Shown in pieces: positions 8,097-48,463 of a stretch of 64,000 nucleotides of DNA. How positions within the stretch are numbered: the first letter of the stretch is position 1; every line of letters begins with the position of its first letter. Source of the stretch: a virus. The DNA lies in IMG/VR virus record IMGVR_UViG_3300045988_164075. One strand, written 5' to 3'. The notes beneath the pieces were generated by a model that was not told where the DNA came from, did not search any database, and worked only from the letters and a program-made list of their open reading frames with translations. The position numbers and the translations under genes are program-made.

Positions 8097-8108
8097 TAAT
8101 CTTTTAAT

Positions 8109-12519: not shown

Positions 12520-13243
12520 AGCTACTATTATTAAAAATAAAGAATATCTTCCGACTTCTGATTATGTTTCTCCGTTTTTGGATCAAATGTCTAAATTTAC
12601 AGACAATTTTACTGTTCAAGTTAAACTTCCTACTCAGATTACAACAACTGCTGAATCGGACGATGTAACATATAATAGAGTATGAATTCAAGCAATATTA
12701 CCAGAAAAATATTGTATTGAAAATCATGATGAAGTATATGGTTTAGTATACGGTTTAGATGTACGTACTCCTGTTTATAAAGTATATCGTGGAATGTTAA
12801 ATCGCGCATGTACAAATTTATGTGTTTTTGATCCATCTTGAATGGAAGTAAACGAAATTAAACCAGGAGAAAATTTTGTATATCATATTACTGCTTTAAT
12901 GGAGAAAGTATCTCATTTTGAAGCAACAATTAAGAAAATGAAAAATACAGTTCTTTCTAGTGATGTAGAAGAACGACACAATAGATTAGGTAATTGAATT
13001 GAAAAATGTGTTTTAGAAGAATATACTGGAACTGGAGGAAAAGTTAAACTTTCCCCATCTACAGTTATAGATGCTTATAATGGAGTTTACTTCGATTCTT
13101 CTTCTAAATATTATGTTGGCAATGAAGATTCAACTGTATTCAATTTCTATAATGCATTTACAGAAATCATTAAGGACGATAAGAAAGATATAATCAATAA
13201 GTTTGAAAAAACATTGCTTATTAACTCTTTATTTGAATTATAA
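12485..13243 (+). CDS. DUF932-like conserved phage protein
   Basis: ORF 12485-12685 extends through 3 TGA to TAA 13241-13243. YRGMLNRACTNLCVF resembles the DUF932 C-x-N-L core. Confidence 0.5.
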
Positions 13244-14122
13244 TGTTTATTATTAAACGAAACGGTACTAAACAAGAGTTTGATTCTTCAAAAATCGATA
13301 AAGCTATCTTATCTGCACTAAAAGCTTCTGGATGTAATACTGAGATCAATCAACCCTCAAAATATATTACAGTTGATAATGGAGATACTGTTGAAGTTAT
13401 TCAAGATCGAATTGAAAATTGATTGATGTCTATATGTCCTAGCGCAGCAAAAGCATTCATTTTATATAGAGAAAAACATAAAAATATTCGAGATTGAGTA
13501 AGTAAAAAAGAAAAATTCATTGAAAGATATAAACAATCTTCTAATACAGCTAATGCAACAATTGATGACAATTCTAACGTAAGTGGCAAAAATATAGGAA
13601 TATTAAACGCTGAAATACATAAATCAGATAATATTCTTATTAGTCGAGCAATGATTGAAAAAAAGTTAAAGGAATTATATCCAGAATTTGATTGCAAAAA
13701 CTATACTAAAGATCTATCTAATCATATTATATATAAGCATGATGAATCAGGATTTGCAGGAGCAATAGCACCATACTGTTGTAGTATAACTATGTATCCT
13801 TTTTTAAATGAAGGGATTAAAAAAATCGGTGGACTATCTGCATATCCAAAGAATCTTGATTCATTTTGTGGAATGTACATTAATTTAATTTTTGCTACTG
13901 CTGCTCAATTTGCTGGAGCTGTTGCAACTTCAGAATTTTTATTGTATTTTGATTATTTTGCCAAAAAAGAATGAGGTAAAAACTATTATACTATTCCAGA
14001 TACCATTATTACCTGTAATAGTTTAAGAAATAAAACAATTAGAAATCAAATTCATCAGTATTTTCAGCAAGTAATATACTCAATCAATCAACCTGCCGCT
14101 GCAAGAGGAATGCAAGCAGCGT
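13243..14122 (+). CDS. nrdD: anaerobic ribonucleoside-triphosphate reductase, exon 1
   Basis: The N-terminus MFIIKRNGTKQEFDSSKIDKAI is an ATP-cone. It continues through TGA codons to ...NQPAAARGMQAA. The exon ends in U. Confidence 0.8.
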
Positions 14123-15451
14123 CAATATAAAATTTTATTGCTTTTCTTAATTTTCTTCTGGATGTTTTAAATATTTTACTTATCTTTGTATATAATTTTA
14201 AAATAAAGTTTATATGGCAAAGAAAAGAAAATTTAACAAATCAAAAGAATGACTTATAGAACAATATGTTATTTTTGATCGTCCACGAAAAGAAATAGCG
14301 GCGGAATGTGGTTTATCAGAAGCGGGATTAAAATCTCTTCTTGCTGAATTTAAAATACTTAAAAATAAATTTACAATAGATAAAAAAGAATTAGAAAATT
14401 TAGTAAATCAAAAATTATCTGTAGAAAAAATCGCTAAACAATTAAATTGTTCTGAGACAAGTGTTTATAGATACTTGAAAAAATATAATTTAAATATATT
14501 AGCTGATCCAAAAATTTATAAACAGTATGATTCATCTAACGATGAAGAAATCATTAAAATGTACAATTCTGGTAAATCTTCAACTGATATCGCAAGATAT
14601 TTTGGAATTACTCATAATACTGTTTTGACTCACCTAGATCATTGCGGGATTAAGCGAAGAAATTATTCTGAATCTCAATGAATGTATAATCAAAAAGAAT
14701 TTCCACAAGATCTTAGGAATAAAGATTTAGTTTATGATTTATATATTAATCAAAAGTTAAGTAAAAAAGATCTTGGAGAAAAATACAATTGTGATCCAGA
14801 TGTAATTGATAGAATTCTTCACGAGTTTAAAATTCCAGTTAGAAATAATTCAGAATCTAAAATAGGATTACGAATTGGAGAAAATCATCCTAATTGACAA
14901 GGAGGAATTACTGGATTACATTACAGACTTAGAGAAGCTTTTTATGTACAACAAGTTCCAAAAGTATTGTATCGTGATAGATATAGGTGTCAGTTGTGTG
15001 GAAGTAAAAAAGATTTACACGTTCATCATATAAAACATTTTAGAGATATTTTTCATAGAATTTTAAATGAACATAAAGATTTAGATTTGATTAATGATCA
15101 AGATCAGTTATATAAAATAGCATTACAAGATAAAGAATTTACTAATTTAAATAATCTTATTACCTATTGTAAAGATTGTCATTTTTACAAAATACATGGT
15201 TATCAAAGAAAAGAAGAAAAGTTACAGGCGCTGCAAAAATCTCCTGAATTGCTGGAAACTCCAGAAATGGACAATCAGCAGCCGAGTATTATAAATACGG
15301 GTTCAACGACTATCTCAAATGAGAGTACATCTAAGCAGATGGAAGTAGGAGACACTTTAAATAGTGATGATATAGTCTAATCTATATAGTAATATATAGC
15401 AGTTCATAAGAGAACGCAAGATAATTAGCGACTATCTTGGAATTAAAATTG
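14123..15451 (+). mobile_element. group I-type intron carrying an HNH endonuclease gene
   Basis: Removal joins ...RGMQAA to FVNFSYFDKPFF. Core elements are gctggaaactcc...gacaatcagcagc...ggttcaacgactat...gatatagtctaa...ctatatagtaatatatag. It ends in G. Confidence 0.75.
14214..15380 (+). CDS. HNH homing endonuclease with repeated HTH-like modules
   Basis: ORFs 14475-, 14682- and 14967-15380 share a frame with ATG 14214 and are joined through TGA. HNH pattern is CQLCGSKKDLHVHHI...CKDCH. Confidence 0.85.
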
Positions 15452-16698
15452 TTGTTAACTTTTCATACTTTGATAAACCGTTTTTTGAGGGAATGTTTGG
15501 AGATTTTTGTTTTCCTGATGGGACTAAACCAGAATGAAGTTCTTTAAGTTGATTACAACAAGAATTTATGACATGATTTAATGCAGAAAGATTAAAAACT
15601 ATAATCACGTTCCCTGTTGAATCGTTTGCGCTTGTTTATAAAGATGACAAATTTATTGACCCAGAATCAGCGAAATTTGTAGCTGAAGAATATGCTAGAG
15701 GTCATTCGTTTTTTACTTATATTAGTGATAGTGTTGATAGTCTCTCATCTTGCTGTCGTTTGAAAAACATGGTTCAAACAAAAGAATTTAATTTTACTAA
15801 TGGCAATATGGGAGTTCAAACTGGAAGTAAAAGTGTTATTACATTAAATCTTAATCGAATTGTACAAGATAAATGTAAAGAACACAATCCTAGTGAAAGA
15901 ACTGTATGAAAAGAAGAAATGAAAGAATATTTGATTAATATTCTTAGTAGAGTTTATAAATATCATACAGCATATAATGCATTGTTACACGATATGTTCG
16001 ATGCGAATCTATTGCCTGTCTATAAAGCAGGATTTATTAATTTGGATAAACAGTATTTAACAATTGGAATTAACGGTTTAAACCAAGCTGCTGAATTTTT
16101 AGGTATTTCTTGTAATGATAACTTAGATTATAAAGAGTTTTGTCAGTTTATATTTAGTATTATTAAAGAACAGAATATTTTACATAAAACTAAAACTGAA
16201 ACATATAATACAGAATGCGTTCCTGCAGAAAGTTTAGCAATTAAAAACTACAATTGAGATAAAGAAGATGGATATTGAGTTCCAACCGACACTAATTTAT
16301 ATGCTAGTTATATTTTTAAACCGAATGATAAAAAACTTAGTGTATTAGAGAGAATAAAACTTCATGGAGCAGAATATATAGGAGAGTATCTAGATGGAGG
16401 TAGTGCAGCACATATAAATTTAGAGGAACATCTTTCAGCTAAACAATATGAAAAACTTTTGAAATATGCTGCTGAAGTAGGTTGTCAATATTTTACCTTT
16501 AATATACCTAACTCTGAATGTGAAGAGTGTGGTTTTATTTCAAGGATAGCGATTACAAAATGTCCAAAATGTGGATCAACAAATATATCTCTATGAGATA
16601 GAATTATTGGATACTTAACTAAAATAAAAAACTGATCTTCTGGAAGACAAATAGAACAAAAGACTAGAGTTTATTCTAAAAATATAGAAAATGGTTAA
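15452..16698 (+). CDS. nrdD: anaerobic ribonucleoside-triphosphate reductase, exon 2
   Basis: C-terminal Zn ribbon CEECG...CPKCG followed by DRIIGYLT, the glycyl-radical RxxGY motif. Several in-frame TGA. TAA at 16696-16698. Confidence 0.9.
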
Positions 16699-26647: not shown

Positions 26648-26897
26648 AAAGAAACCTGTTGAAATAGACGCTATTCAATATACAGGTAATAACGTTAGCG
26701 AAATTGAAAATTTTGTAGGAACTAATCTTTTACATTATAATACTCAAGAAGAAAATAATTATCAACTAGGAATTCCAACTTTAGAAGGTATAATGAAAGC
26801 TTCTATAGGAGATTACATTATTAGAGGAGCTAAAGGTGAATTCTATCCTTGTAAGCCTGATATATTTAAAATAACATACGATGAAGTACAATGTTAA
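26631..26897 (+). CDS. hypothetical protein
   Basis: Complete ORF of 88 aa. Confidence 0.55.
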   Translation: MIKKYRKKPVEIDAIQYTGNNVSEIENFVGTNLLHYNTQEENNYQLGIPTLEGIMKASIGDYIIRGAKGEFYPCKPDIFKITYDEVQC

Positions 26898-27134
26898 TTA
26901 GAAATAAAACAGTATATATATTTGATATAGAGGTGTTTCCAAATGTATTTCATTGTTCTGTTAAAAATACTGAAACAAAAGAAATAACGCATTTAGAAAT
27001 TTCTTCTAAACGTAATGATTTGATGAAAATTGTAGATCTCTTTTGGCAAATTAAAACAGAAGACCAGAAGAGTATTTGAAACAAAAATTATACTACTGAT
27101 CTACAATTTAATGTCGATAAAATAATGTGCGGAT
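26891..27134 (+). CDS. family B DNA polymerase, exon 1
   Basis: YIFDIEVFPN is the Exo I DxE motif. One in-frame TGA. The exon ends ...KIMCG plus a U. Confidence 0.85.
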
Positions 27135-27398
27135 AAATTTGAAATTTTCTAAATGTCCCTGTTACTATGTAACAGAAAATCGGGTGAATTGCTGGAAACT
27201 CCCTCTGGGACAATCAGCAGCGAAGCTACAGAAGTACATAAAAGTATGTAGAACGTTCAACGACTAATTCTTGAGTAGTACAAACAATAATAGAAACACG
27301 AGCGCCCGACTTAATCTTTTATAGATTAAGATGATATAGTCTGAACTATATAGTAATATATAGAATTATTAGTTAAATGATAATAAGTTAACAAATTG
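27135..27398 (+). mobile_element. ORF-less group I-type intron (264 nt)
   Basis: Removal gives CGYNILHYDTP. It contains gctggaaactcc...gacaatcagcagc...gttcaacgactaa...gatatagtctgaactatatagtaatatatag and ends in G. Confidence 0.75.
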
Positions 27399-28345
27399 AT
27401 AATATTTTGCATTATGATACCCCAATTATCAATTATATTATCGATTATCATCAAATCATGCAATATAAGACATATAGAGAAATCTGTCAATCAATTTATA
27501 ACTTAAATCGTCTTATAATTACATCTACTGATGGAAATTTTACATCCTGAAGTAAATGAAAATATAAAGTTTATTTTGAGTCATTAGATCTATTAACAAT
27601 GTTATATTCTCAAAAGCTAAGAGTAGGATTGAAAGAAATGCAGGTAACTATGCAGTATCATAATGTCCAAGAATATGATGGGGATTTTTGCTCTGATTTA
27701 CCTGTTTCAGAAATTCCAAATATGGTTAGTTATTGTGATAATGATGTTAATAGTACTGAAGCACTACTTTATAGATGTAAAAAAGATATTGATTTAAGAA
27801 TTGCTATTGAAGATGAATATGGAGTAAAGGTATTAAATAAAGATGGAGTAAACATTGGAATGAAAATTATTACTCAAAAGTACCTCGAAAAAACAGGACA
27901 AACTTGGAATCAAATTAAAGATTTAAGATCTCCTTGTGATCAAATTCCATTAAAAGATGTTATACTTCCTTTTGTGAAATTTAACACTCCAGTTCTTCAA
28001 AATTTATTATCTGAAATTAAAGAACTTACCGTTTCTCCAGGGCGTAAAGGTCTAGAAAAGAAATTTATCCTTGGAGGAGTTGAACACTTATTTTCAGTAG
28101 GCGGATTGCATTCTGTTAACAAACCAGAAGAGATAATTCCTAATGAAAATCAAATATTAGTCGATAAAGACGTAACGAGTCTTTATCCTAGTATGATTAT
28201 AGAACATGAATTTTACCCTAAACACCTTGGTCGGGAATTCCTTGAAGTATATAAACAAATTAAAGATGAACGTGTTGCAGCAAAAAAAGCGGGTGATAAA
28301 ATTAAAAATGAAACACTAAAATTAGCTCTTAACGGACTCTCAGGT
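27399..28345 (+). CDS. family B DNA polymerase, exon 2
   Basis: DKDVTSLYPS is motif A (DxxSLYPS). It ends in ETLKLALNGLSG, the start of motif B. Confidence 0.9.
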
Positions 28346-28607
28346 TGAGTTTTATAATCAGCCCCTTCATTCAGGAATGGATGATGTGAATGAACCAAAA
28401 TCGGTGAACATCTGAAACGATAACACCGAGGTAACAGTAGAATGTAACAATTCTTCTGCACCGTACAGCGTAGAAACTGAAACTTCTAATGAAGAATAAA
28501 ATGTTTCCAAGAGTGGTTCTCTCCAGAACGGAGTAAAATGTACGCGGGACTGCATAGAACAGAAATATGCAGAAGTTAAGATAAAAAGCTTAACGATAAC
28601 ACAATCG
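28346..28607 (+). mobile_element. ORF-less group I-type intron (262 nt)
   Basis: It lies between ...NGLSG and NLQNEHNF. The 5' exon ends in U and the intron ends in G. Its 3' domain is homologous to 156-305. Confidence 0.7.
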
Positions 28608-28660
28608 AACCTTCAAAATGAGCATAATTTTTGTTATAGCCCCTTTACCGTTATGCAGAT
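28608..28660 (+). CDS. family B DNA polymerase, 53-nt micro-exon
   Basis: Encodes NLQNEHNFCYSPFTVMQ(I). It is in frame with both neighbouring exons only after both introns are removed. Confidence 0.7.
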
Positions 28661-29470
28661 TAAATTTTAGTCTGGCTATATAGTAATATATAGATTAATT
28701 AACTCTTTTAATTGCTGAAAACTCTGACCGTGAAAGACGAAGACAATCAGCAGCCAAGTTATACTATATGATTTTAAAAAATAAGGAACTTAATCTTGAA
28801 AATGAATATTTTAAAGTAGTAGCATTTGATGAAGAACGCTACAAAGAATCAAATAGACGACGTTTATACTATTTGATACAATGTAAAAGATGTGGCAAAG
28901 TATTTTCTAGAAGAAAAGAAGCTATTATAAATGGATTTAATATAAAATGTCCAAATTGTATTAGAACAAGATTTGGTGCTACATTAAATACACTATTGTA
29001 TAACGTATATATTCATTATAAAAATAATGCAGCACAACGTAATATAAATTTTAATTTATCAGAAAAAGACTTTAAAGTTTTAGTTAAACAGAATTGTTAT
29101 TATTGTGGACAAGCGCCTACTAAAACTAAAACTGCTAGTTATAAAAATGAATATGAAGAAATAAACGGAATAGATCGAATCGATTCGTCAAAAGAGTATT
29201 CTTTAGATAATTGTGTTCCTTGTTGTGAAATGTGTAATAAAATGAAAAACACTTATACACAAGATGTGTTTTTTGAAAAAATTACTCAAATATATAATCA
29301 TAGTATAAAAGGTTCAACGACTATCCTGCAAGGGAGTACATTACAAGCTAATGGTAATGGAAATAGAGAGTATCCAAAAATGGATAAAGATATAGTCTAA
29401 TCTGTATAGAAATATACAGCAGTTCATAAAAGAACGTATATAGGATTTGCGACCTATATAGAATATAATG
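28661..29470 (+). mobile_element. group I-type intron carrying an HNH endonuclease gene
   Basis: Contains tagtctggctatatagtaatatatag, gctgaaaactc...gacaatcagcagcc, ggttcaacgactat and gatatagtctaa. Removal gives VMQIRINGQLL. Confidence 0.75.
28768..29400 (+). CDS. HNH homing endonuclease
   Basis: CYYCGQ...NGIDRIDSSKEYSLDNCVPCCEMCNKMK is an HNH pattern. Complete ORF. Confidence 0.85.
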   Translation: MILKNKELNLENEYFKVVAFDEERYKESNRRRLYYLIQCKRCGKVFSRRKEAIINGFNIKCPNCIRTRFGATLNTLLYNVYIHYKNNAAQRNINFNLSEKDFKVLVKQNCYYCGQAPTKTKTASYKNEYEEINGIDRIDSSKEYSLDNCVPCCEMCNKMKNTYTQDVFFEKITQIYNHSIKGSTTILQGSTLQANGNGNREYPKMDKDIV

Positions 29471-30176
29471 TAGAATTAACGGTCAACTATTGTTATTAAT
29501 GTTAGCTGAAAGGCTAATAAGTGTTGGAGCACGCATTATAAACACAAATACGGATGGTATATTCTATTTAATTGATAAGAATCGGCTTAAAGATGACGAA
29601 AAAGTTTGTAAAGAGTGAGAAACTATAACTAAGCTTAATCTAGAAGCTGATTATTTTGAAGCAATGTTTCAATTTGCAATTAATGATTATTTAGCTATTA
29701 AAGAAGGTTATTCAAAAACACATGATCCTAGTTTACTTAAAACAAAGGGATTATTTATAGATCAAGTAAAACTTGGTAAAGGGATGGCAGCTACTATTAT
29801 ACCTGAAGCTATAATTAAACGATTAGCTGATAATATTCCTGTTGAGGAGACAATTAGAAACTGTCAAGATATTCATAAGTTTCTAACTTATCAAAAAGTT
29901 AGTAAGGATTACTCAGTAGAATATGATGGAAAACTTATACAGCGAATAAATCGCTATTATGTATCGACCGATGGCCCTTGGCTTTATAAATGTAAAATTG
30001 ATCATAACGGCAACCGTTATAAATATATTAAACTATTAACTGATTCAGGAGTAACTATTTTAAATAAGATTGAACCTAACATGCCTTTGCCAAAAAATAT
30101 AAATTATCGTTATTATATTGCCGCTGCTCAGAAAATAGTTAACTGCTTTAAACAAAAACAACTAACACTATTTTAG
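29471..30176 (+). CDS. family B DNA polymerase, exon 4
   Basis: RINGQLLLLMLAERLISVGARIINTNTDGIFY contains motif C (DTD-like). One in-frame TGA. TAG stop at 30174-30176. Confidence 0.85.
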
Positions 30177-33590: not shown

Positions 33591-33629
33591 AAATACCCTA
33601 CATGCTTCGGCGTGTAGGGTATTTTTTTT
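33591..33629. terminator. bidirectional rho-independent terminator at the convergence point
   Basis: ataccctacatg-cttcgg-cgtgtagggtat has a UUCG-type loop. It is flanked by an A-run upstream and T8 downstream, so it can serve both strands. Confidence 0.75.
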
Positions 33630-36600
33630 AAAATATAGATATAGATGTACCTAAACCTCGAAGTGCTCCAAAATTTTCAGTTACTCCTACTCATAATTCT
33701 CTATCTCCTGTTAGTACTTCTCCAACATTATTAAACATGTTTTTAAATATACTATATGCGGGAGGATTTAGATCTCCAATCATTCCACTTATAATATTTT
33801 GTACAGGACCATCTTGAAAAGATCCATAAAGAGCACTTGCAGTTCAACGTTTTATTCACGGTTCCTCTTTGATATCATCTCAAGAAAATAGAGCTTTTAC
33901 TAATAAACCTAATAATAACATAAGTAACATATCATGTAAGAAAAGGAATAGATTTGCTCTTTTTATATCGTCTTTTCATAGTTTATTAAACTCAGATGTA
34001 TTAAGAGTAGATAATGCTTTTAAATACGAAAACATAGACCACATTATTCCTTCCTGAGGTCTACCTACTCATTCATAGAAATATTCTCATTTATCTCCTT
34101 CTTTAAGTTCATTCTCAAGTATAATATCTACTATAGGCTGTCCATTTTCATCAAACGTAATTCGTCTTACAAATTTATTTCCATTTTCATCGACTGCTAT
34201 TTTATAACTCCCCTGATCATAGGTACCAGGCTTTAGTACTCATTGTTCTAGTTTTGCAGATATAAAAGTTCGGAATTGTAGAAAAAAAGATCCTAAAAAC
34301 ATGTGCTTTGCTAACATCTGAGTATTTTTATCGTAATGTCCAAAACACATATCTGCAAATGATTTAATACTAGCAGATTCTCTTGCTGTATAAGCTTTAG
34401 GCAAAGCGTCTCCATCTTTTAAGTTATATCCTTCTCTATTAAACTGTTCTAGCATCGTGATATATAAAGCATGTTGTTTACGGTATTCTTCGCTATTTAC
34501 GTTAGGATTAGCAGAATGTAATAAGCTGAAACGTTTATCCTTTTTAAAATCATATACTAATTCTTCATTAACAACACTGTGCGCATCAAAACATCCATCA
34601 TGCATCATCTTTGCAACTAATATTGTCATTCGATGTAACATATCAGGAGCTCTTGAAAACATATATAACTGATTACTATCAAAGTTTAATATTCCCATTT
34701 TACTTAAACTCATCTCTCGATGTAATTGATCAGCATCAGAATTTGCCATACCGTATTGTCAATTCATATACTCTAACAGTGTAATTTTTCCAATAGACTT
34801 TGGAGCTTCCTTTAATACTGTCGTCATTGCTTTAGTAAAATCTTTCATAGTAAATTGATCCTTACCATAAATTCCAGCAGCAGTTCTAGATAATCCAATT
34901 CAAATGCCCTGTAATGTTTCTCTAGTACCTGATTTAAGGTTAAATCCAAGTGTAGTAGCTGTTGCTACTTGTTTTAGCATAGCCATAAACTTATATGCTG
35001 GTTGAAGTCCCTCGTCCATTATAGGTTCGTTATAGATATTTAATTGAGTATACTTTTTTATAAATTCAATCAGATTATCTACCTTTTGACCATAAAAGAA
35101 TTCTTGACACAATAATCCAATTTTAAATCCTTGAATTAAAGGAAGAAATTTAGAACTTACCTCTTCTGTTACGTATACATGTAAATAACTTCTAATAAGA
35201 TCTTCAAGATTAGTTTCCATACTCTCTACACCTTCATCATTAAGTATCTTGTTACGTGTAGATTGATCAATTCTGAATTTATTATATACTTCTAAACTAT
35301 CTCGTTCATAATTAGTTTTTTCCTCCTCTTGAGCATTAAAAAGTTGTCTAAAATTAGTTGCTTCTTGATAACTAAATTTTAAAGCTTTTCATACTCCTCC
35401 TTGTTTAGCTTGAGATTGAAATGAACCAATCATTAATGGAACTTGATAATATTCTCCAGATGCTTTTGCCTCTTCAATCGCAGTCTCATTACCTCTAAAT
35501 TTAATTTCATTAACTATTTCTAGAAATGTTGAAACTAATTCTTTGTCTGCTCCTGTTAATTCTTCAGGATGTTTTAAAGAAAATTCTTTTGCGATTTTTC
35601 CATTAGCATCTTTAACAAATAGATCATCATAAAATCTAATTTCCCCTCCAAATGCTTTTATTTGATGATGTGCCTTATAAAAACGTTGAAATACTCCTTG
35701 AATTTTTTTATTTCATTTTAATTCTTCTTTACGAATCTGTTCCTCATGTAATGCAATCAATCTACCCATTTCTTGGATATTTTTTGAATCAGCATTACTA
35801 ATACTAGTTATATTGATTCCTAAACTTACTCCTCCTTTAAATCCAATTCAATTACTCGGGTCTTTTTCAATATAGTATCTGTATCCATTTAACTGATTTA
35901 ATGCTTTTAATAATAAACTGTACGATACTCATATTGGATCATTAGGATTAGGCTTTTCGTTTACTAATTTGCGATATTTATTACGTAGTGCTTTAATTCT
36001 ACTAAGCACTCATTCTTTTTTACTTTCTAAGGTATTTTCATCAGGACCTATAGTTCAATTCATTAATTTATTTCATTCTTCCTCTTGAATTAAGTCATTA
36101 ACTGTAAATAATACAGATTCTAATGTATTTAGAAAGTTATTTGATGATAAATTGTTTTTAATGTTTGCAATTCTACAAAGTCTACTAAAATTATCTAGTA
36201 AAGTTTCATTATATTCTTCTACTCCTTGTGAAGTTCAAATATTTAAACTTTTAATTCGGCTAATTTTAGTTCCAGAAATTAAATTACTGTACTCATTTAA
36301 GTAAATCATTACTTTCATTAAATCAATATTACCATTAGTAGCAGGTAAAACAGTCTTAGGATCAATACCTTTATCTGTTAGAAAAGTACCTAATATAGAT
36401 GTACCTTTAGCTAATTTAAGGGTTTGATTTAATTCATTATTAGTAATAGAAACAATCTCTGTAACTCCTTCTTTTTCAAAAATAAATATACCTAAATCGT
36501 TTAAAATACTATTTTTTCTAAATAGCCATTTTTGATCAATATACTGTTTAAAATGTTTTTCTAAAAATACATCTTTATTAACACTATCGTCTGGAGAAAG

Positions 36601-38073
36601 TTCGCTTGTTGTTATTTCCCCACGTATCGCAGCTTCAATTCGATCTGCTAATGTTGCTAGTTCTCCTGCTTTACGTTCATTAATTCTATTAATATATGAT
36701 AACAGTTCTTTTTCTAATTCAGATTCATTTTTAGCATAATATACTTTGCGATTATATTTATCTCAAAATTTATATATACCCTTAGCAGATTCTTCTGTAT
36801 TTTTTGGAATACGTTTTACAAAAGTTGGAGAGTTCCTATAATACTCGTATGTTGAATTAGTAGTTTGAACTTTTCTAGATAAGGTTACATCGGGGAATAG
36901 TGTATTAAATGGTTTGGCTATTTTATCAATTAAATCAATATTTGTATCTTCATTTGGACGAATTGGAACAATTTTCTTAACATTTTCGTAAATTTTTCCA
37001 CCAGGCTCCGTGCCTCTAGGATTTCTTACAATTTTTGTAGAATCAAAAATAATTTCATTTAAATTCTCTACTGTTAAACCATTAGTATTGTAAGATAAAT
37101 CTAATTGAATTGGAACTACATTTATATCTGCGGTTTTAATTCCATATTGTTCTAAAATCATCTTGTAGAAGGTCATTTGATATGATGCAGAAAGTTTTTT
37201 AGTACTATGTCAAGTATTATTTAACTTATTAATATCATTTCGCATCATATCTCAGTCTCCAACTCCTTTACGGGATACTTTGAAATCATATATATGCGCT
37301 ATTCCATTCTCATCTATAACTAACATATCGATTCGTCCGTTAATAGAATTAATTGGACTGTTATCTTCAATAACTTTCCCATTATTATCTATTAAATAAC
37401 GATTACCTTTACGATAATTTTCATTAAGTTCCCGAGATTTAACAGCTAATTCTGTAAATATTTTTGCTTCATTGCCGTATCTACGTTTTATATCAGCAAT
37501 AAATTCTTTAAATTCACTAACAAATTCTTCCTGCTGTTCTATACTAAATAAGGAACTTTTAAAATTAGATTCTCTGCCTTCAATAACAGCTTGTGCTAAA
37601 TTATGAATTTCTGTTCCATAATTAGTAAGTTGTTTTCAAGAAGTTTCTTCCTGTAATACTAAATCTTTAGCTGTACTTTCAGATAAACCCGTAGCTAATC
37701 ATTCTTTGATACGCTTTTCTCTTCAAGCTTTAATATTAAATGGAGTAATAATATGTTTACTTAAGTCAGTAGGATCTCCAAATTCAGTAATGGCTCTAGT
37801 AACAGAAATAGAATTAGGAATTTTTAATATAACTTCACTATCTCCATCTTCGTTAATACGGATATTTTCTACAGCACTTTCTTTATATTCTAATTTAGCA
37901 AAATTCAAGTTATTTAAAGTTGCTGCTTGTGGAGTAGTTGAAAATGTTCTATCTAATTTAACAGTAACATTTTTATCCGCATATTGTGATTTAAGAAAGG
38001 AGTCCAACTCAAAATCAGAGTTGAACGTCCTTTCCTTTCCATCTATATTAATTGTAAATATACATTTACTCAT
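33628..38073 (-). CDS. giant virion-block protein (1481 aa) with a PD-(D/E)XK-like nuclease motif
   Basis: ORFs 37723-38073, 36763-37176, 34900-35220 and 34240-34749 share one frame and are joined through many TGA. The motif GRIDMLVIDENGIAHIYDFKVSRK lies near 37270-37340. TAA at 33628-33630. Confidence 0.75.
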
Positions 38074-40585
38074 AGCAATCCTCTTTTATTGTTTTATCTG
38101 AAATTAAACTATTTTTAATAGTAGCTAATTTTTGATTCAATTTTATATATTCTATATTAACTAGATCTGTAAATCCTCCCGATATAATTCCACTACTAAA
38201 AGTTTCTAATAAATTTTCTAATGAAGAATTCATTAAACTTTGTATATTAATATCTCCTGTATTAATATCGAATACCTGATTAATTACAGTTTTAGTAATA
38301 TTGTCTGTATCAGTTAATAAATTATTCTCGGGTCATTCGTAAACCTTATTTTTAAAATATTCTCCTAATATTGTTGCAAATACTTCTTCGTCAAGATCAG
38401 ATCCATGTTTATTTGCATACATCGGATTACTTGCGATCTCGTTGTATTTTGGATGCGTAACAATACTAGATAATATATTATAATAAACCTCTGGACTATT
38501 CTCTTTAATTCCTGCTAATACTAAATGTGTAAACTCGTGTAATGGAGCAGTTATACTAGCTTTATCTATGTTAATAAATACAATTCCATCTTGTATAAAA
38601 GCTTCAGAGTTTCGAATAGATATATCGTCACTAGTATTTATATCATTATCTGTAATAACTTGTATTTGTGATTCAGGATATATATTTCTTAGTCGACTTG
38701 TTATTGCATTTAGAATTTCTGCTGAATTTAACTCTTGATGATAATAAGAAGTTGTCCTAGGTTTAATTTCAACCAGTTTGTTCTTAGCTAAATTTGCATT
38801 GTTACCTTCTAGAAATGGCATATTTAAAGTAAAATATGAAGTATCTATATTATGCAAATTAACTTCTTGTCTATTTACAGATATTATTCCAGCGTCATTA
38901 TCTCGTTCAATATTTAACTTTTTTGGATTATTAGTAACAATACCTAAACGATACTTAGCATCTCTAATATCATAATTAATAGATTTATTCATGGAATAAT
39001 CTAAATTTGATAAATATGAATAAAATTGAGTTGCTAATAAATTACTTGAATTAATTTTTGTAATATCTTCAAATAACCTCGTAAATGATCTTTGTCCAAA
39101 TGCATCTTTGTTCACAACTAAATTATATAAATAGAATAAATCGATAACGTTTCATCCATCAAACGTCTTTCCATTTAACAAGTTAAAATCGTGTAATATT
39201 GCTTCATACAATGTTTGATTTCTTAAAGACTTATCTATTTGCATCATATTTAGAGGTAACTTATAAAATACATTTGGTTTATCGGAGTATGGATTATTTA
39301 TAGTTCCTCATGTTAATAATTTAATAAATAAATTATTTGCAAAATTTGGATCAGATTTTAAAGTTGGAATAATATATTCGTCCATTAAACGTTTAAATGT
39401 TGCTATATTTTCAACATTATTTAGATTAATTTCAAATCCTTCAATAGAGTTTGTTTTAACTATTCCAAATTTATTTGCAAAATATTTTTGTCCAATAGGA
39501 ATGTGTATTGATCTATCTAGAGTTTGAATTCAATTATATATAAATACATCATTTATATATTTAGATAATTCTCTATATTCGATTGCATTTAATTTATTAT
39601 CTGGAGAAACTAGTTCGTTAGCTATTTTAGTTTCAAAATAATTTTTTGCTGCTAAACTATCAATTGCAGTTCTATCTAGATATAATACCTGAAACATTTC
39701 TTTGAAATGTGGAACTGTAGTAATAGCTTCCAATATATTAAATGTTGATTTAACTTTTTCGTATCTATTTATATATTCTTGCTGTTTTATAGGATCATTT
39801 AAGAATAGCATTAAATCAAAGTTAGGATTCTGATCAAATCGCTTATTAACAAAGGCTTCAATTCTTTTAATGTAATTATATTTATCAAAAGAACTAGTTC
39901 TGATACCTTGATTTATTCCTGCCATTGCTCCAAGAATAGATTGTTCCTCAGTTGCAGGTAATACTTTATTTACAATAAATCGCAGATTATCAATTTGTTC
40001 CTGTAAGTTAGGAGTATTATCTAGTTGAAGTTTTCTTGTTATAAAAGATTTAACTACTTTATATGCATTAATATAATCCTCTTTAGTTAATTTAATATTC
40101 AAATTAATATTTACTCCATCTTCAGACTCATCGAAGAATTCATCAAAGAATTCTTCAGAATAATCACTATATTCTGCGAATAGTTCTTCATCAACATCTT
40201 CACTTAGATAAGCAGATTTACGTTTAGGAATATTATTTAAGATATTATTTTCAAGTTCTTCTAACTTATTAGCATCGTTAATAACAGTTTCTCAAAAATA
40301 TTTCCTATCTACAAACGGCTCAATTAGTTTAAAGAAAGACGTTTCACTTAAATAAGGTAATATATGTTCTCCTAAATAAAAATTAATTGCAGATTCGATG
40401 GAAAATTTATACGTACTTTTATCAAATATATCTCCATCCGTAACCTTTACCACATAATTAAATATAGGGGAAGTCATTATATCTGCAATTTGATCGAATG
40501 ACATACCAGTTATCAACAAATGTGTATAAATATCTACGAACTTAGCACTTGCATTAATTTTTGCTAATATAAGCTCTTTAGCATT
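38066..40585 (-). CDS. giant RNA-polymerase-like protein, exon 3 (C-terminal part with HExxH)
   Basis: It starts NAKELILAKINA. ORFs 40292-, 39530- and 38333- share a frame through TGA. APLHEFTHLV is a zincin HExxH motif near 38524-38538. TAA at 38066-38068. Confidence 0.7.
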
Positions 40586-40942
40586 CAATGATGTTACAAA
40601 TATACCGTTTCCGTATATTTTCTTATAGTTTCCTATAAGTTCAGACTATATCTTCACATAAATGTGTCTCGCACTTCAGATTCACTTGAATCTTACGTTA
40701 AAATAACTAGTCGTTGCTCTTTTTTCCAAGTAATTGGAAACTTAGATCAGGATTGTCCAATCTTTAACCTTGTTACTATACATGAATAATTAATTCATCC
40801 ACAATATTATTACTAACATTGTTTAGTAGTTAAAGCTCTAAGGAGTTTCCCTGAATTCACGAGATTTTACACGGACATTATAAAAAATCTTGTATATATT
40901 TTAATTTATACAAAAATTTTATCTGCAGCGTTAAAAATTTCT
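40586..40942 (-). mobile_element. ORF-less group I-type intron (357 nt)
   Basis: Removal joins ...LSAATD to NAKELIL. The minus strand contains ttcagggaaactcc, gacaatcctgat, agcaacgactag and gatatagtctgaacttataggaaactataag. The 5' exon ends in U and the intron ends in G. Confidence 0.7.
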
Positions 40943-41836
40943 ATCCGTTGCTGCTGAAAGAAGAGCACTTATAGATAAAGAAGCATCAGATACATTTGCA
41001 GTATCTCTAAGTTGCTCTATTTGTTGTTTAATATTAAATACAGTTCCATTACTTAACGTAATAGTTTCAATTTGATTATCTTTTAAGAATTTTACAATAG
41101 GGTCTAGATTAATATTTGCTACAATTCCATGATTGTGTATTCGAGTAGTAAACATTAACCGATCAAGTAATTCTACGGCTTCATCATTCCTTCCTGTTTT
41201 TAATAGATCAATAAGTTCACGATATTTCGTATTGTAATAGTTAGAAAGTAAGAAATATACTTTAAGCGATACCGCAGTAATACCAATCACTTCTTTACCT
41301 ACCATATTTTGTTCTTGCATAACAAACTTACTTGCGGGATTATCAGAAGTTCTTAATTTTTCTTCTTTTCCTAATGCTGATTTCTGAGCAGCCTTTTGAG
41401 GATCATCCATATTAATAGGAATGTGTAGATTAATTTGATTCTTTGGATTTAAAACTACATCTAAAATTCCATCAACAACCCTATTTTTTAAACCCTCGTT
41501 TATTTGCTCTGTAGTAAGTTCTGTTTGTGCATGTTTATTTAAGTCTCTCAAAAATATATAGCGACTGTTTGGTTCTACCGATTCGTCAAATGCAATACTA
41601 TTGTAGTCTCCTTCTAAAATCGATTTAAATATTTTTAAATTTCCATTTAACAGTACATCATCTACTTCCTCTTTCGTTACATAATATCCATTTTCATTAT
41701 CAATAGTATAGTGTTTGTGATTTGGTAAAGGAAGTTGTCTAACTTCATTTAAATCATATGTATCTGCTAATCTTGAAGGATAATATAAAGTTCCATCGTT
41801 TTTAACAGAACATCCAAGTATATACTGTTTATCAAT
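40943..41836 (-). CDS. giant RNA-polymerase-like protein, exon 2
   Basis: It begins IDKQYILGC, the second half of DYD|IDK, and ends ...LLSAATD. Confidence 0.75.
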
Positions 41837-42778
41837 CATGGTGTTAGCTGTATATTTCTATACAGATCAGACTATATCTTATCTTAATATATTATTCATT
41901 AAGACCTCTCCATTTCCACTTTTTCAAGTGTACCTTCGACAGTATTTTCATCTGTCTCTTTTAATAACTTCATATATTTTTCACACTCTATTTTATCAGG
42001 AATTACCTTATACATCATATGGGGACACATATAAGGTTTAATTATTTCTATTAGCTTTCGTCCTTCTCTAGCGCAAAAACTAATTATATAAGATTGTTGT
42101 CGTTTATCAAAAACCTTTGTAGGATATAAATCTCACTCAGTATTAAAATATTTAATTATATCCTCAGCTTGTTCTAATTTGCAATAAGTAGATATAGTAA
42201 TATAAAATCCTGCATAAACTCTATCTCCATTTTTATTAATTCTAGAACGTCTTGATAACGAACCGTCGTCCATAATTCAAATTGCTAAACCTTGAGGACC
42301 AAGTCTTTTCAATAATTTACTATTATATTTTGTTCTTCCGTTTTCATACTCAACTCTTCGAAGAACTTTACAAAAATCTGATACAGAAGTTTGAAATCCG
42401 TATCTAGTTACTACTTTACCTTTAGAATAACCATTTACTTGTTCTCATTCTCTAAAAATACCTACTTTAACTCCATTATCCTTAAGTAGTTTTCATTTTC
42501 AGTAACAGTATTCTTTTTGTGCTTTGCAATGATTTATATTTAAATAACCTTTTGTATGTATATGTCCATCCCCAATAGACATAGCAATTATTAAATTTCT
42601 TCCTGTTTTATTTAAGCGTGTTTTTAATTGTTTCATACTATTAAAGTCGAATTATTAAGTTATTAATATTAGTCGTTGAACCTTCCATTTTTATATGGCT
42701 TGGCTGCTGATTGTCTTCGCCATAACGCGGTCAGAGTTTCCAGCAATTAAAAGAGTTTTAATACGACATGATAAGTTT
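41837..42778 (-). mobile_element. group I-type intron carrying a LAGLIDADG endonuclease gene, inserted inside the DxDxD motif
   Basis: The upstream exon ends WMEGSDYD and the downstream exon starts IDKQY. The minus strand has gctggaaactctgacc...gacaatcagcagcc, ggttcaacgacta and gatatagtctgatctgtatagaaatatacag. It ends in G. Confidence 0.75.
41899..42636 (-). CDS. LAGLIDADG homing endonuclease (two-motif)
   Basis: Hand translation with TGA=Trp gives 245 aa with LIIAMSIGDGHI and LAIWIMDDGSL. It contains 5 in-frame TGA and lies in a different frame from the host exons. Confidence 0.8.
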
Positions 42779-45700
42779 ATCGTAATCGGAGCCTTCCATT
42801 CACGTAACTACTTTAGCTACATAAACATCATTTACTTCACTATCTGTAAATATTACAATCTCCATAGGAGCAAATGACTGCATTGATTGTGACGGTATGC
42901 GAGTACCTACATGAAGTAAAGACTTTTCAAATGCTTCATATTGATTAAACGCTAATTGTTTTATTCTTTGATTAAAGTTATATATTTCATTTTGATTTAA
43001 ACTTACGTAACTAATATCTGCTGTTGGATTGATTTTAGCTTCATGTAAGTTTCCTTCACTATCTCTAGTATGTAAAGCAATAGGAATATTATTTTCTATA
43101 TTGTAACGAAATTGATAAGGTAATAATTTTTTAGTATTTTCGCTAGTATAATTAAATTGATATGTATTAATTAATCCTGATTTTCTTAATTCACCTAATC
43201 GATCTATAGAATTTATAATAATTAAATCATGAACATTTCCATTTGTATCCGTATACTTATAAAATTGTTTCTCATCATTTGTTGAAAATTCTTTTTCATT
43301 ATAGTATACAATATTATCAATAATTTTAAAATCAGGATTTGGAGTAATACTACCTGTAAATGCTTTTGGAACTTCTTCTGTTCTTAAAACTTTTACATAG
43401 AATTGTTTTCCTGTTCCATCAAATAATACAATATCATATGTTAATTTATCTGGATTTCCAATGTTATAGTTACTTTGCATTCGATTATAAAAGAAATTTT
43501 CTTTTTCTTGTCTAATCTGAGCAATAGAGTCTCCTTTTTGCAATCCAAATTGTTGAGCTTGCCTTTTCCCCATTACAATTTGAGTTGGAGTAACATTAAC
43601 ATTAGATACTTTAACAACTCTAACATTTGGATTAGTAATACCAAAAGCAGTATTATTAATAATAGATTGATTGTCAGCTAAACTATTTAGTTGTAATTGT
43701 ATCTTTTGTTGTAAATCAGATAATAGACTATCTATGTTTAACGGTATATTATCGATTGGATGTAAACCTAATGCAGATGATAGTAATGTTTTTTCATACT
43801 CTGTTAAATCCTCCCAGTTCTTTAATTGTTTTCTACGAGAACTTAAATAATAAGATGCTCTTACTGCATCTAAGTCATATATACTAAAACGTTTATTTAT
43901 TTCATTTCCAAATCCATCTAAGCCTACAACTACATCAAAAAATGTATTTGACTGTTTTAGATTTTTAGGTTTAATTGTTCAGTTATAGTATTGTTGTCCT
44001 AAAGTTGCTTGGTGCTTATATAAATCATATTTTTCTAAGGAATCGATTTTAATAACAGTAGGATTATCTTCTTCATTAAATATTACAATTGTATCTTCGA
44101 AATCAATATCATTTGGCTCAATTGGAATTATAAAAGGATTTATTTCTCCATCAATAATAGGTTCTGTTAAAGCACGTTCAACTTTACTTTTTATAATATT
44201 TCCGTTTTCATCGTATAAATGATCAATACCTTTTGTATTTACTAAATTATATAATTCTTCATACTGATAATTAAGTCCATCAATATTATAGTATTGAATC
44301 ATATTATGAGAAGGAACTAGTACAGATGCTATACCAGAATATTTACGTCTAATTCCACTTTTAACTAAGTTAGATGTTGTAGTAGCAATAAAAGCTCCAT
44401 TAATTGTTGCTGCGCTAAATGGTAATTTATAATCTAAATTTGCATTTTTAAAACTTTCATTAGCTAAATAAACAAATGATTGTGCTAACCCTAAAGTATC
44501 TTTGTCATCATTCATAAAAGCTTTAATTAATGATCTACCTAATATAGTATACAGTTGATCTTTATCTTTAGCTTTAATTGTTTCTGACAAATCATTCATG
44601 GATTCTTTAACAATCTGACCAATTTCTTTATAAATCTGAGTTACTAACTCATGTGTAAATCCATTTTGCTCTAAAGCACTAATCATTTGCGTCATTTCAG
44701 TAACCTCTGACATGTCTAAATGGTGGTCAGCGTTCATTTGAACTCCTCCAAACTTAGTAGACATTTCAATAGTAGTAAATGCATCAGAGTTACTTCATTT
44801 ACTTGAATCATTTATATTTCCTGCTCCAACTTTGATTGCAGATTTATTAACTAAATAAGCAATAAACTTATCTTTTAATTGCTCTTTGTTAACAATATTT
44901 TCAAGTATATCAATATTAGATTCAGAATATTCTAAACGATTTATGTCTTCATTAAATTTCATTGCTCAAGATCCACCAAATACTTGATCAATATCGTATA
45001 ATGTATTTATTATATGAGTTGTCTGAATAGTATTGTTTGTTTCTAATCCATTAGATTCAACTTCAGTTAGATCTCTAACAACTTCAATTAATCCATTCGG
45101 ATCTAAAATCGTTTTGATTGAATTTATTTTATAATATTTATTAGTTCGAATATCTTTAAAATATATAGGATCAAATGTATTATAATAATTTTCTAAAATA
45201 ATAGATTTGTTAATTGGAATACTATGCATTTTTTTAAAGATATTTTCTAATGAAATATCTGAACCATAAGAAATACGTCTTCTTTCATTACTTATATCAA
45301 AAACAGCCCATTTTAATAAAGTTGGTCTACCATACCGAGAATCGATATCATGCATAATAGTTTTTTTATCGCGCCCAACTCTTGCATCTAAGAGTGAATT
45401 ATTTTCTGCTCTAGATTCAAGTGGACTTGATAAACCAGATCCATCCATAGTATCTAATCCAGTATTTTCATCTCCTAACATATTTCAGGCTGTTCCCGCT
45501 TCATCGTTAATTACAGCAATTTTAATATTTGAAGCAACTCCATTTTCTAAATTTTGAGCAAATGGATGGTAAGTAGCTCCAAATATTACCATACGTTTAT
45601 ATTGAGCAATTAGTCGATTAGCTTCACTAAATTCAAAATATTCTTTGCTATCTAACTTTCCATCTTTGTTTTTATTCGGATGTGCATAAACACCTCCTAT

Positions 45701-48463
45701 CATCATATTATTATACTCATTTGATAATAGAGTATCAGTAATAAAATATGATTCTAAAATGGGATTTAGTTTAACTTTTCATTTTGGATTAAGTAAAGCA
45801 TCAAAATCAACTATTTTATTGAGATTAATTCTTTTACCTTTTTCATCAGTTACTTCAGCTAATGTAATTTCTCCATTTCTTTTATTAACTAATGATTTAA
45901 ATTCAGGTTTATTAAATGTTTGAGAAATAAAACTATCCTGATTAATATTTAAATTAAAGTTATTTACAAGTAAGTCCTTTAGGAATTTTCTTTTTTCTCT
46001 ATCTAAACGTTCTAACGTTTTATTTTGATCATTATAGACTTTAAAAAAGTTTTTAATAGTTTCGTTAGTTCGAGGGTATTTACTTAAGGCAGTTTTATAT
46101 GCATGTATATCTAAAAAGAAATCAACTCCCTTAGCATTAAATGCAGATTGAATACTTTTTAAACTGTGATTATATTTCGCAATGAATTCATCAATCTGTT
46201 CTAATGATGTAAATTCTGTATCAAAAGCAAGACTATAGTCAAACAATATATTCTGAACTAATGCATTTATTTGGTTTTTTCTAGTTTCTCCTAAAAGATG
46301 ATATAAAGGATCTAAAGTTCCATCTCCTTTTAAATAGTTATTTAAAATTTCTTTAATGTTTACTTCTCCTAGAGAAGTATTGATGGTTTTACCTATATTA
46401 TATGTTATTAGAAAATGTTTATTTTTATCAGAAAAAGTAGTCGGTTGTAAATAAATTAATCCCTCTAAATTATCTACTAGATTTTGATAAAAATCGTGCA
46501 TGATAGATAATCTTGCAACTTCACTAACTTTTAAATTAGCAGGTTTTTTAATTTTTCCATTAATGTTTATATCCGATCGAATTCTAGGAGATAATAAAAA
46601 ACCGCTTTCAATATTTTGTACTATTAAATTATGTGCAGCTACATTATTTGGATGTTCAATTGTTTCTGTAGGTGGATTAATTAGTCTATCAAATATTTCG
46701 TTATGATTATATACCAAACTAATAATTTGATATAATGGCAAGTTATTTCCCTCTGCATTTTTAATAATATTAATAGTATCCGAACCATTTGTTACACTTA
46801 ATACATTAGCTACTTTTCATATATCTTCTGTAAATGGAACTAAATTAACAAGATCGTGTTCTTTAGTTAAAATATCACTATTGTTTCCATCTAATAACGT
46901 CGTAGCTAACAATGGAACAAATAGTTCTGTTTTTGTATATTTTTCAACAGGATATACCTGAGGAATAATTTCAGCTATATTTTCTGGAATTATAAAAGAC
47001 ATAAAGTTATATATCAGATCGTTCAAAGATTGATCATTAATTTCTCCAAACGATCTATATATCATTTTGCCATTTTGATTTAATTCATAAGTAATAGTAA
47101 ATGTAATAGGTATATTATCTATAATAGATTCAATAACAATTCTATCATTACCTATAGTAATTCCGTACTGATTTAATTTTTCTTTAAATAAATCAGGATT
47201 AGATCTTCAATAAAAACCTGATGCCTGAATTAAACTTCTAATATCGTATGCTTGCTGCGATACTGGTCGTTCTTTTAAATCTCTGCTAGCAATTGTCTTT
47301 TTTTGTGGATCAAAGCCATATGCTGTATATTGCGATGGCACTGTTTTAAAAGCCATTTGAGTAAACATAGCTTTTATTTCAGAAGACATTTGAGGCGAGT
47401 ATATAAATTTCTTAATACCTCGTAATTTATCTAATAAATATGTTCTATAATTTTTAGATATAATTCGGTTTGAAAGTATATTATTTATATATGCGTCTAT
47501 TAACACAGACATATCTGCTTTAACTCCTTTGTTTAATTCTGAACGATATTCTATTAAATTTTCATTTTCTTGAATAGTCTTAATAAGTTTTGTCATTACA
47601 GAATTAAATCCTGTTAAAGTAATACTAGTATTATCTATTTCTAAACCAACTGCATTTACTTCAGGAAAGTAGTCTAACAATATTTTTGATAAATCACTAG
47701 CATGGTCTTCCGCGTTTGTATCTTCATTAGTACTAAAGCCAGTATAGTGTATTACATTAGGACCTCTGTATATATAACGATCTACATAAGACGAATTTGT
47801 CTTTGTATATTTTGGATTAATAGTAATAAACGGAATCTCACTCTGCAATAACTTATCAAACTGAGTTAAAATTACATATGCGTCATATGCATTATTAAAA
47901 GCACTATTACGATCAATTAATTCTGAATTAAATACAGTTTCAAAATTAGTTAATATTTCTGAAACTCTATTATCAAAATTTGCAAGATTCTCTAAATTTA
48001 ATGTTATAGATTCAGAATTACCTAAATATTTTGAAATATTAGAAGCTAATGTTTTTTTATAATTTAAAATAGAATCATTTAAAAAAGTGATATCAAATTC
48101 TTGTTTCTTTTCATTAGCATTAATAAACTCTCCAGAATATCTATTAAATATAGAACTTTCGATTAATTTAGCTCGAAATTGTCTTAACATATTTGAATAC
48201 TGTCCATTATTTCCGATGTAAAAATCAGGAGTAGAATCAGTTTCTGTATTTAATTTTAATCCTAGTTTATTATCTACTTGATCTATGTTATTAATAGTTA
48301 ACGGAGAGGTGCTAATAATAGCACCTTCCGTAAACATATTATATAACCTATCTGAGTCATTAAAGAATTCATCTAGAAACTCTTTAAATGATTCAGGTTT
48401 AGTTGTTTGCATCCGTTTTACTAACGGCAAAAATTTTGCAGAGTAATTACATTTAGCACTCAT
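42779..48463 (-). CDS. giant RNA-polymerase-like protein, exon 1 (1895 codons)
   Basis: ORFs 47207-48463, 46817-, 45779-, 45485-, 44966-, 43979- and 42800- are all in one frame and are joined through TGA. It ends in GSDYD. Confidence 0.75.

Follow-up and report, generated by a model that had tools for sequence, protein, structure and literature searches.

A virion-RNA-polymerase-like gene of a TGA-recoded phage with two predicted group I introns, one of them within the catalytic DxDxD motif

Background

How is an RNA polymerase expressed if its reading frame is broken between the aspartates of its catalytic DxDxD motif? This question is raised by a giant gene at 38066-48463 on the minus strand of a viral DNA of 64,000 nucleotides (nt) (IMG/VR virus record IMGVR_UViG_3300045988_164075), which was analysed at its whole length and is henceforth called the window. 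We consider, with a probability of roughly 0.88, that the product is a virion RNA polymerase of the phi14:2 gp66 family, that its source is a crAss-like gut phage with recoded TGA and many introns, likeliest of the Zeta group, and that two canonical group I introns interrupt the gene. A preliminary description of the window had likewise proposed an RNA-polymerase-like giant gene, a 942-nt intron (not an intein) encoding a two-motif LAGLIDADG protein in another frame, a second intron without an open reading frame (ORF), and an HExxH zincin.

Zeta-group crAss-like phages are known to read TGA as Trp or TAG as Gln and to carry up to 14 introns per genome; their polymerase ORFs are disrupted within DxDxD, and their transcription block is drawn with a LAGLIDADG domain (Yutin et al. 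2021, PMC7886860). There, stop codons and frameshifts were named as the breaks, with the suggestion of "additional, yet unknown expression mechanisms" (Yutin et al. 2021, PMC7886860). The same recoding has been described for phage Lera (PMC12386605). While intron-rich Zeta-group genomes and DxDxD-broken polymerase ORFs are thus already known, the present analysis adds that ordinary group I splicing would account for the break.

Results

Gene structure and junctions

On the minus strand, the frame 48472-38068 contains TGA as its sole in-frame stop (n = 13) outside two stretches that are dense in TAA and TAG (42760-41860 and 40933-40648). The three exon blocks flanking these stretches share one frame, and their joined product under genetic code 4 comprises 3032 amino acids (aa), with DYDID at residues 1893-1897 spanning the first junction. 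In an alignment of 27 homologues, Trp was the commonest residue in the 13 TGA columns, followed by Phe, Tyr and Leu, and sense TGA also occurs in genes on both strands of the window (e.g., 8 in 8109-9404 and 24 in 33628-38073). As to the gene ends, homologues begin with MSAKC... and finish with ...C-x. Frame, exon and insert coordinates were rechecked, and the boundaries of the preliminary description proved exact to the base. The features of the gene are as follows:

38066-48463 (-): whole gene of three exons and two introns for the virion-RNA-polymerase-like protein of 3032 aa, with 13 in-frame TGA read as Trp
42779-48463 (-): exon 1, 5685 nt, 1895 codons, aa 1-1895, ending ...VVTWMEGSDYD
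41837-42778 (-): intron 1, predicted group I, 942 nt, between the codons for D1895 and I1896 of DYDID
42762-42774 (-): guide sequence of intron 1, P1 and P10 pairing with the exons
42668-42748 (-): 5' core of intron 1 (P4, P5, P6, J6/7, P7 5' strand), partial match to Rfam RF00028
41899-42636 (-): gene for a homing endonuclease of 245 aa with two LAGLIDADG motifs, containing five TGA codons and lying in the +1 frame relative to the exons
41848-41911 (-): 3' core of intron 1 (P3', P8, J8/7, P7 3' strand, P9)
40943-41836 (-): exon 2, 894 nt, 298 codons, aa 1896-2193, IDKQYILG...LSAATD, including the segment aligned to the gp66 bridge helix
40586-40942 (-): intron 2, predicted group I, ORF-less, 357 nt, between D2193 and N2194 (SAATD/NAKEL, the slash marking the junction here and below)
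38066-40585 (-): exon 3, 2520 nt, 839 codons plus TAA, aa 2194-3032, starting NAKELIL
38336-38737 (-): conserved HExxH domain, aa 2810-2943

A homologue search of 5.8 billion proteins yielded 55 clusters, of which about 30 were full-length (roughly 2600-3980 aa) and uninterrupted at both junction sites, carrying the motifs GSD[YLF]D[IAG]DK.Y and S(A/L)(A/T)(T/V)DN(A/M)KEL. As these uninterrupted homologues are colinear across both sites, both junctions are exact. Furthermore, one contig of a nearly identical phage (L009, see below) lacks exactly the 942 nt of the first insert; the arrangement of two inserts and three same-frame blocks is not due to chance. The remaining clusters include 18 that end within the DxDxD motif:

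After GS: P0019, P0055
After GSD: P0006
After GSDY: P0002, P0008, P0014, P0016, P0023, P0043, P0053, P0054
After GSD[YL]D, the site of the window: P0001, P0018, P0020-22, P0024, P0042

Cluster P0001 (1901 aa, 99% identical) corresponds to exon 1 read on into KLIMSY*, and cluster P0041 ends at SAATD. Among GenBank phages, megablast with the whole gene gave no match.

Similarity to the phi14:2 polymerase

The gene was assigned to the RNA polymerases by its relationship to gp66 of phage phi14:2. A tblastn search matched phi14:2 g066 ("Catalytic RNA polymerase subunit", E 9e-4), and a profile of 28 family sequences matched gp66 1314-1552 in hmmsearch with 53.5 bits (E 4.8e-14, Z = 177,635, i.e., a PDB-sized search space), while hhalign aligned query 891-3031 with gp66 661-2180 at 97.6% probability. 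In these alignments GSDYDIDKQY lies on GSDFDIDKMY of gp66 and DYDID on the catalytic DFDID at 1361-1365, whose aspartates are essential (gp66 paper). The polymerase likeness proposed in the preliminary description is thereby upheld. The site of intron 2 aligns to D1612/N1613 of gp66, inside the trigger loop (1598-1636; bridge helix 1529-1559; gp66 paper).

Both proteins are single giant chains in which the GSD[FY]DIDK motif is aligned residue for residue, the RIPxQ strand as well as the bridge-helix and trigger-loop segments are alignable, and a conserved Cys lies near the C-terminus; both genes stand within a block of giant virion-protein genes, which are putative ones in the window. They differ in that identity is about 26% and confined to the surroundings of the active site, in length (3032 aa vs. 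2180 aa), and in that gp66, unlike the window protein, has neither introns nor TGA recoding nor HExxH. Packaging into the virion and transcription of early genes would be the predicted role of the polymerase.

The Cys near the C-terminus (...KEDCYE, 38069-38083 (-)) stands 2-3 residues before the end and is invariant in 14 aligned family homologues; the end of phi14:2 gp66 (...KQECK) also has a near-terminal Cys.

Intron 1 and its nuclease gene

In the exon frame, a TAA follows six codons into the first insert (KLIMSY*). Its boundaries obey the group I rules, as a U precedes the 5' splice site and the last intron base is G (...TACGAT/ to ...CCATG/). Within the guide sequence, GTCGTA (42767-42762) pairs with TACGAT, the last 6 nt of exon 1 (42784-42779), to form P1 with a U.G pair at the splice site, and P10 is formed by TTATCAT (42774-42768) and AT(T)GATAA, with which exon 2 begins. 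RF00028, whose curated threshold is 50 bits, matched the insert in two parts, namely 42748-42668 (model 57-150, 33.3 bits, E 1.5e-6) and 41880-41850 (J8/7, P7 3' strand and P9; model 221-251, 26.6 bits, E 1.6e-4). Just upstream of the 5' core lies the P3 5' strand CTCTTT (42755-42750), which pairs with GGAGAG of P3' (41911-41906); the 3' core further contains the P8 hairpin (41904-41882), J8/7 with the P7 3' strand (AAGATATAGTC, 41880-41870) and the P9 hairpin (41865-41848).

Among six sequences of intron-1 relatives, P4, P5, P6, P7 and P9 were kept in all, and P5 and P9 covaried. As P3' and P8 were misaligned by MAFFT, P3 and P8 were read by eye and without a formal pair count; read singly in this manner, P3 was complementary in each relative (CTCTTT with GGAGAG, TTTCCT with AGGAAA, TCGGGTG with CGCCCGA, TCTCCTG with TAGGAGA, and CCTCGTG with CGCGAGG).

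The 245-aa ORF within the insert carries the motifs LIIAMSIGDG and LAIWIMDDG and matches Pfam PF03161 (LAGLIDADG_2) with 67.5 bits (cut-off 25, E 1.9e-18) as well as phrog_11023, in line with the two-motif LAGLIDADG protein foreseen in the preliminary description. It is placed between P7 and P3', crosses P3', and has its TAA inside the 5' strand of P8.

An intein would require the insert to be translated in frame and to contain the Hint splicing blocks, but many further in-frame stops follow the one at six codons, and the nuclease ORF is in the +1 frame. The related possibility that insert 1 is skipped during translation, by bypassing or another unknown expression mechanism, gains some appeal from both insert lengths being multiples of 3 nt with the exons in one frame, and from the additional expression mechanisms that Yutin et al. 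2021 proposed. Against this stand dozens of TAA and TAG codons in the exon frame within both inserts, the LAGLIDADG ORF in another frame, the group I hallmarks, and the lengths of related introns at the same sites, which are not multiples of 3 (926, 350 and 359 nt). The chance of an intein or of bypassing is therefore next to negligible, and the earlier call of an intron, not an intein, is sustained by the in-frame stops, the frame of the nuclease ORF, the group I core elements, and P1 and P10 covarying with the exons.

Intron 2 and covariation

The second insert shows the same boundary signature, with the exon ending in U (...ACGGAT/) and the intron in G (...CATTG/), and its guide GTCCGT (40876-40871), located 66 nt into the intron, pairs with exon ACGGAT. 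RF00028 matched 40896-40622 with 57.8 bits, above the 50-bit cut-off. For the covariation test, five ORF-less introns were aligned, and the structure was taken from the Rfam alignment plus P7 (67 pairs). In this family, 92.4% of cells held standard pairs vs. 32-44% with the partners slid, changes on both sides occurred in 37 of the 67 pairs, and none of 500 shuffles reached any of the measures. By the Rfam score and the strong covariation, the second ORF-less intron of the preliminary description is borne out. Homologous introns were found at this site in contigs L004, L008 and L009.

Related contigs and guide sequences

Seven related contigs were retrieved and their introns mapped:

L005: LAGLIDADG-encoding intron of 926 nt at site 1 of the window
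L003: LAGLIDADG-encoding intron of 926 nt following GSD
L002: ORF-less intron of 350 nt following GSDY
L007: ORF-less intron of 359 nt following GSDY
L008: LAGLIDADG-encoding intron of 1044 nt following GSDY, and an intron of 300 nt at site 2
L004: intron of 1544 nt following GS, and an intron of 444 nt at site 2
L006: break at site 2, where the contig ends

Guides and exons change together among these introns. At site 1, TACGAT with guide GTCGTA in the window is replaced by CTTGGAT with GTTCAAG in L005, where exon 2 ATAGA also pairs with TCTAT in a P10 that is compensatory relative to the window. At site 2, ACGGAT with GTCCGT (window) is replaced by CACTGAT with GTCAGTG (L008) and ACTGAT with GTCAGT (L004), and at the GSDY site GTGACTAT with GTAGTCAC (L002 and L007) by GTGATTAT with GTAATCAC (intron 1 of L008).

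An eighth contig, L009, was recovered by a scan of IMG/VR. Over 5.3 kb it is 98.6% identical to the window at the nucleotide level, lacks exactly the 942 nt while keeping intron 2, and reads GSDYDVDK without interruption (DYDVD vs. DYDID in the window), the intron-less site being ...GGGTCTGATTATGAT/GTAGATAAACAG... Intron 1 at the site of the window was found in L005 and in six IMG/VR loci (L010-L015); since one search pattern of the scan spans the intact motif, the frequency of the interrupted allele is biased.

These comparisons bear on the possibility that the inserts stay in the RNA and the three blocks are made as separate polypeptides which assemble into a split polymerase. Both introns do end in an in-frame start-like codon before the next exon (...CCATG/ATT and ...CATTG/AAT), exon 2 is called as an ATG-started ORF, and public gene callers give the pieces as separate proteins. 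In such a polymerase, however, the three catalytic aspartates would be divided between chains, two on the first and one on the second, whereas about 30 homologue clusters and the near-identical L009 have the motif uninterrupted; moreover, complete ribozyme cores and guides that track the exons are sensible only with splicing. We regard a split polymerase as highly improbable.

The gene copy could also be a pseudogene whose introns have decayed and no longer splice; for intron 1 the Rfam matches are only partial, and splicing is a prediction from sequence. On the other side, the exons are open across 3032 codons, the nuclease ORF is intact, all core helices are intact with compensatory changes among relatives, six IMG/VR contigs and a protein cluster with 1630 members show the interrupted allele again, and in the characterised relative the virion polymerase is indispensable (gp66 paper). 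A pseudogene is thus quite improbable as well.

As an observation in its own right, the start-like codons at the intron ends (ATG/ATT at 41837-41839 and TTG/AAT at 40586-40588, both (-)) have counterparts before the downstream exon in L003, L005, L004 and L008, and the downstream exon could in principle be translated from unspliced RNA.

Evidence against and proposed expression

A number of results weigh against the reading as a virion polymerase with two spliced introns. The 3032-aa protein alone had no match in Pfam, PHROGs or PDB sequences. A model of the polymerase core, made with AlphaFold on a segment of homologue P0003 in place of the window protein, reached a mean predicted local distance difference test (pLDDT) score of 66.9, with values below 50 at the catalytic strands, and Foldseek with this low-confidence model found nothing in the PDB at E<0.6 and did not recover gp66 or QDE-1; the fold with two double-psi beta-barrels is inferred from sequence homology only. 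Intron 1 never reaches the RF00028 threshold as one match, because the 738-nt ORF splits its core. An Rfam scan of the whole window at the gathering threshold missed both introns of the gene and found only 27109-27363, and a 2.6-kb scan at E<=10 missed both introns as well; as they were found only in scans of less than 1 kb, these negatives are attributed to speed filters. The removal of both introns from the RNA is a prediction from sequence. No tRNA genes were found within the 64-kb window, hence no suppressor tRNA there. Finally, the likeness of the C-terminal HExxH domain to SprT/zincins is weak (see below).

The sequences show the anatomy of exons and introns, the ribozyme cores, the pairings of the guides, the nuclease gene, and the presence/absence polymorphism of intron 1, whereas the following course of expression and homing is proposed. 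Each intron would fold after transcription, and free guanosine would attack P1 at its U.G pair, after which exon ligation would be directed by the intron's terminal G. In the 3032-aa protein encoded by the resulting single mRNA, the DYDID triad that binds Mg and the trigger-loop motif SAATDNAKEL would be whole again, and translation of this mRNA would require a UGA-reading tRNA-Trp encoded outside the window. The LAGLIDADG enzyme of intron 1 would cut intron-less DxDxD-coding alleles of co-infecting relatives, whose repair would copy in intron 1 together with about 30 nt of flanking exon per side. The C-terminal HExxH domain would probably act as a SprT/zincin-like metallopeptidase, with its substrate left unspecified.

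This would provide a base-exact solution for the Zeta-group polymerase genes described as disrupted within DxDxD, since UGA = Trp together with ordinary group I splicing would suffice for the window and for seven contigs related to it. For this phage a full-length 3032-aa polymerase sequence is obtained, in which the two introns would target the Mg-binding triad and the trigger loop, and the approach is of value for annotation, as the polymerase and other core genes of recoded, intron-rich gut phages are now called as fragments. In addition, the intron-plus and intron-minus pair at 98.6% identity is suited to tests of homing and co-conversion.

Mobility of the introns

Differences between the window exons and L009 are clustered around the insertion point of intron 1. 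Of all 51 differences, 12 fell within -32 to +26 (L009 2614-2700 against window 42811-42779 and 41836-41811), which corresponds to a divergence of 10-20% there and of about 1% elsewhere (nominal Poisson probability ~6e-12, for an interval chosen after the fact). Among the 12, the codons for T, G, S and Y each show one silent change of the third base. Such a cluster would be expected from co-conversion during homing or from divergence of the target site.

In relatives, group I introns sit after GSD, GSDY and GSDYD and possibly after GS. The nuclease ORF of the window shares 82% identity with that of the L005 intron and 32-39% with the L003 and L008 ORFs; the latter two share 52% identity, although their ribozyme backbones differ and their sites lie 3 nt apart. 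A single family of ORF-less ribozymes occurs at the GSDY site and, with its guide re-targeted, in the trigger-loop codons. Tentatively, and at slightly less than even odds, the 9 nt that code for the catalytic triad may serve several competing intron lineages as a common landing pad; this fits the related nuclease genes in two backbones, the re-targeted ORF-less family, and the rule-breaking intron of L004 described below. If true, the gene would be a natural record of nuclease and ribozyme reshuffling and of guide-sequence retargeting (reverse-splicing transposition).

For the L004 intron after GS (7629-9172), no boundary pair meets both group I rules, as it either ends in A (...ATCAGA/GAC) or its exon ends in C (GGATC/T...). 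Its ORF (380 aa, with HTH repeats and, by eye, a PD-(D/E)xK-type-looking C-terminal region) lies upstream of the ribozyme core and not inside it.

Phage group I introns with homing endonucleases include those of T4 td, nrdB and sunY, the SPO1-type DNA polymerase introns, and the intron in an RNA polymerase subunit gene of AR9. Intron 1 resembles these in its small ribozyme with a nuclease ORF in a peripheral loop whose 3' end overlaps core helices, in its insertion where the gene of an essential enzyme is most conserved and its codons are critical for catalysis, and in its presence/absence polymorphism with a flanking tract of the co-conversion type. It differs in that the host gene would be that of a single-chain, two-barrel virion polymerase, in that the ORF uses recoded UGA and is placed between P7 and P3', and in that several lineages occupy sites 3 nt apart in relatives.

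HExxH domain

Within the C-terminal domain, HEFTH occupies residues 2876-2880 (nt 38539-38525) and D2923/E2926/E2927 lie at nt 38398-38384, i.e., the D..EE group follows 43 residues downstream; H2876, E2877, H2880, D2923, E2926 and E2927 are invariant in 14 homologues. A model built with AlphaFold from a TGA-free stretch of the window gene predicted a helix, three strands, the HExxH helix and a Glu helix for aa 2810-2943 (pLDDT 71-94). Foldseek against BFVD matched a SprT-like protein (E 1.3e-3) as well as a code-4 phage protein, a crAss-like virus protein, and structural proteins of marine crAss-like phages. Pfam gave isolated weak single-member matches (ATLF 0.0017, SprT 0.2), and the PDB was without a match by sequence profile and, by Foldseek, without a hit below E 0.6. 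The zincin claimed in the preliminary description was thus supported in part, by the motif, the invariant D..EE group and the BFVD likeness, whereas Pfam and PDB gave no significant match; the domain looks, weakly, SprT/zincin-like. With SprT-like and minimal zincins it shares an HExxH helix after a small sheet and an acidic helix about 43 residues downstream, and it differs from SprT-like zincins and from gp65 of phi14:2 in having no significant sequence or profile match and no PDB fold match. Autoprocessing by this domain is pure speculation.

In phi14:2, a zincin-like domain is located in the neighbouring protein gp65, which has HEIMH at residue 245, whereas the zincin-like domain of the window would be fused to the polymerase. 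That the latter is the gp65 zincin fused on was considered and is unproven, as comparisons of the HExxH-domain profile with phi14:2 gp65 and gp66 (hmmsearch and hhalign) were not significant. HExxH is absent from the giant proteins encoded next to the polymerase gene in the window.

Genome context

The polymerase gene stands in a co-oriented block of giant ORFs of 1481, 3032, 2682, 606 and 1380 aa, in which the neighbours contain 4-24 TGA each and overlap the polymerase gene by 8-11 nt:

33628-38073 (-): 1481 aa
48453-56501 (-): 2682 aa
56515-58335 (-): 606 aa
58316-62458 (-): 1380 aa

A PHROG scan of the 1481-, 606- and 1380-aa neighbours gave no match. AAA_30/AAA_19 domains occur in homologues of the 2682-aa protein, and PDDEXK_1 was matched weakly by one homologue of the 1481-aa protein.

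The plus-strand half encodes a primase, a GIY-YIG nuclease, NrdD, a Dda-like helicase, a ligase, a DNA polymerase, a thymidylate synthase and a deoxynucleoside monophosphate (dNMP) kinase, and the window contains at least five group I introns in total. The window resembles the Zeta group in TGA = Trp, group I introns at very high density, an extensive block for replication and nucleotide metabolism, and a polymerase ORF broken within DxDxD, and the source phage most likely belongs to this group of crAss-like phages. The present account differs from that given for the Zeta group in that the break is resolved to a predicted canonical group I intron whose boundaries are exact and which is accompanied by guide pairings and an empty-site allele.

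The nrdD gene (13243-16698 (+)) consists of the pieces 13243-14130 and 15493-16698 with one group I intron between them, in which an HNH/HTH homing-endonuclease ORF (14214-15380) runs into the group I core (TTCAACGACTA at 15302 and GATATAGTCTAA at 15369). The DNA polymerase gene (phrog_1252, 26891-30176 (+)) is split by two group I introns into 26891-~27108, 27458-28357 and 29499-30176; the intron without an ORF is the one found by Rfam at 27109-27363 (98 bits), and the other contains an HNH/EndoVII-like ORF (28768-29400) overlapping the core. At 5929-7062 (+), a 377-aa GIY-YIG homing endonuclease ORF matches phrog_7168 (E 4e-27).

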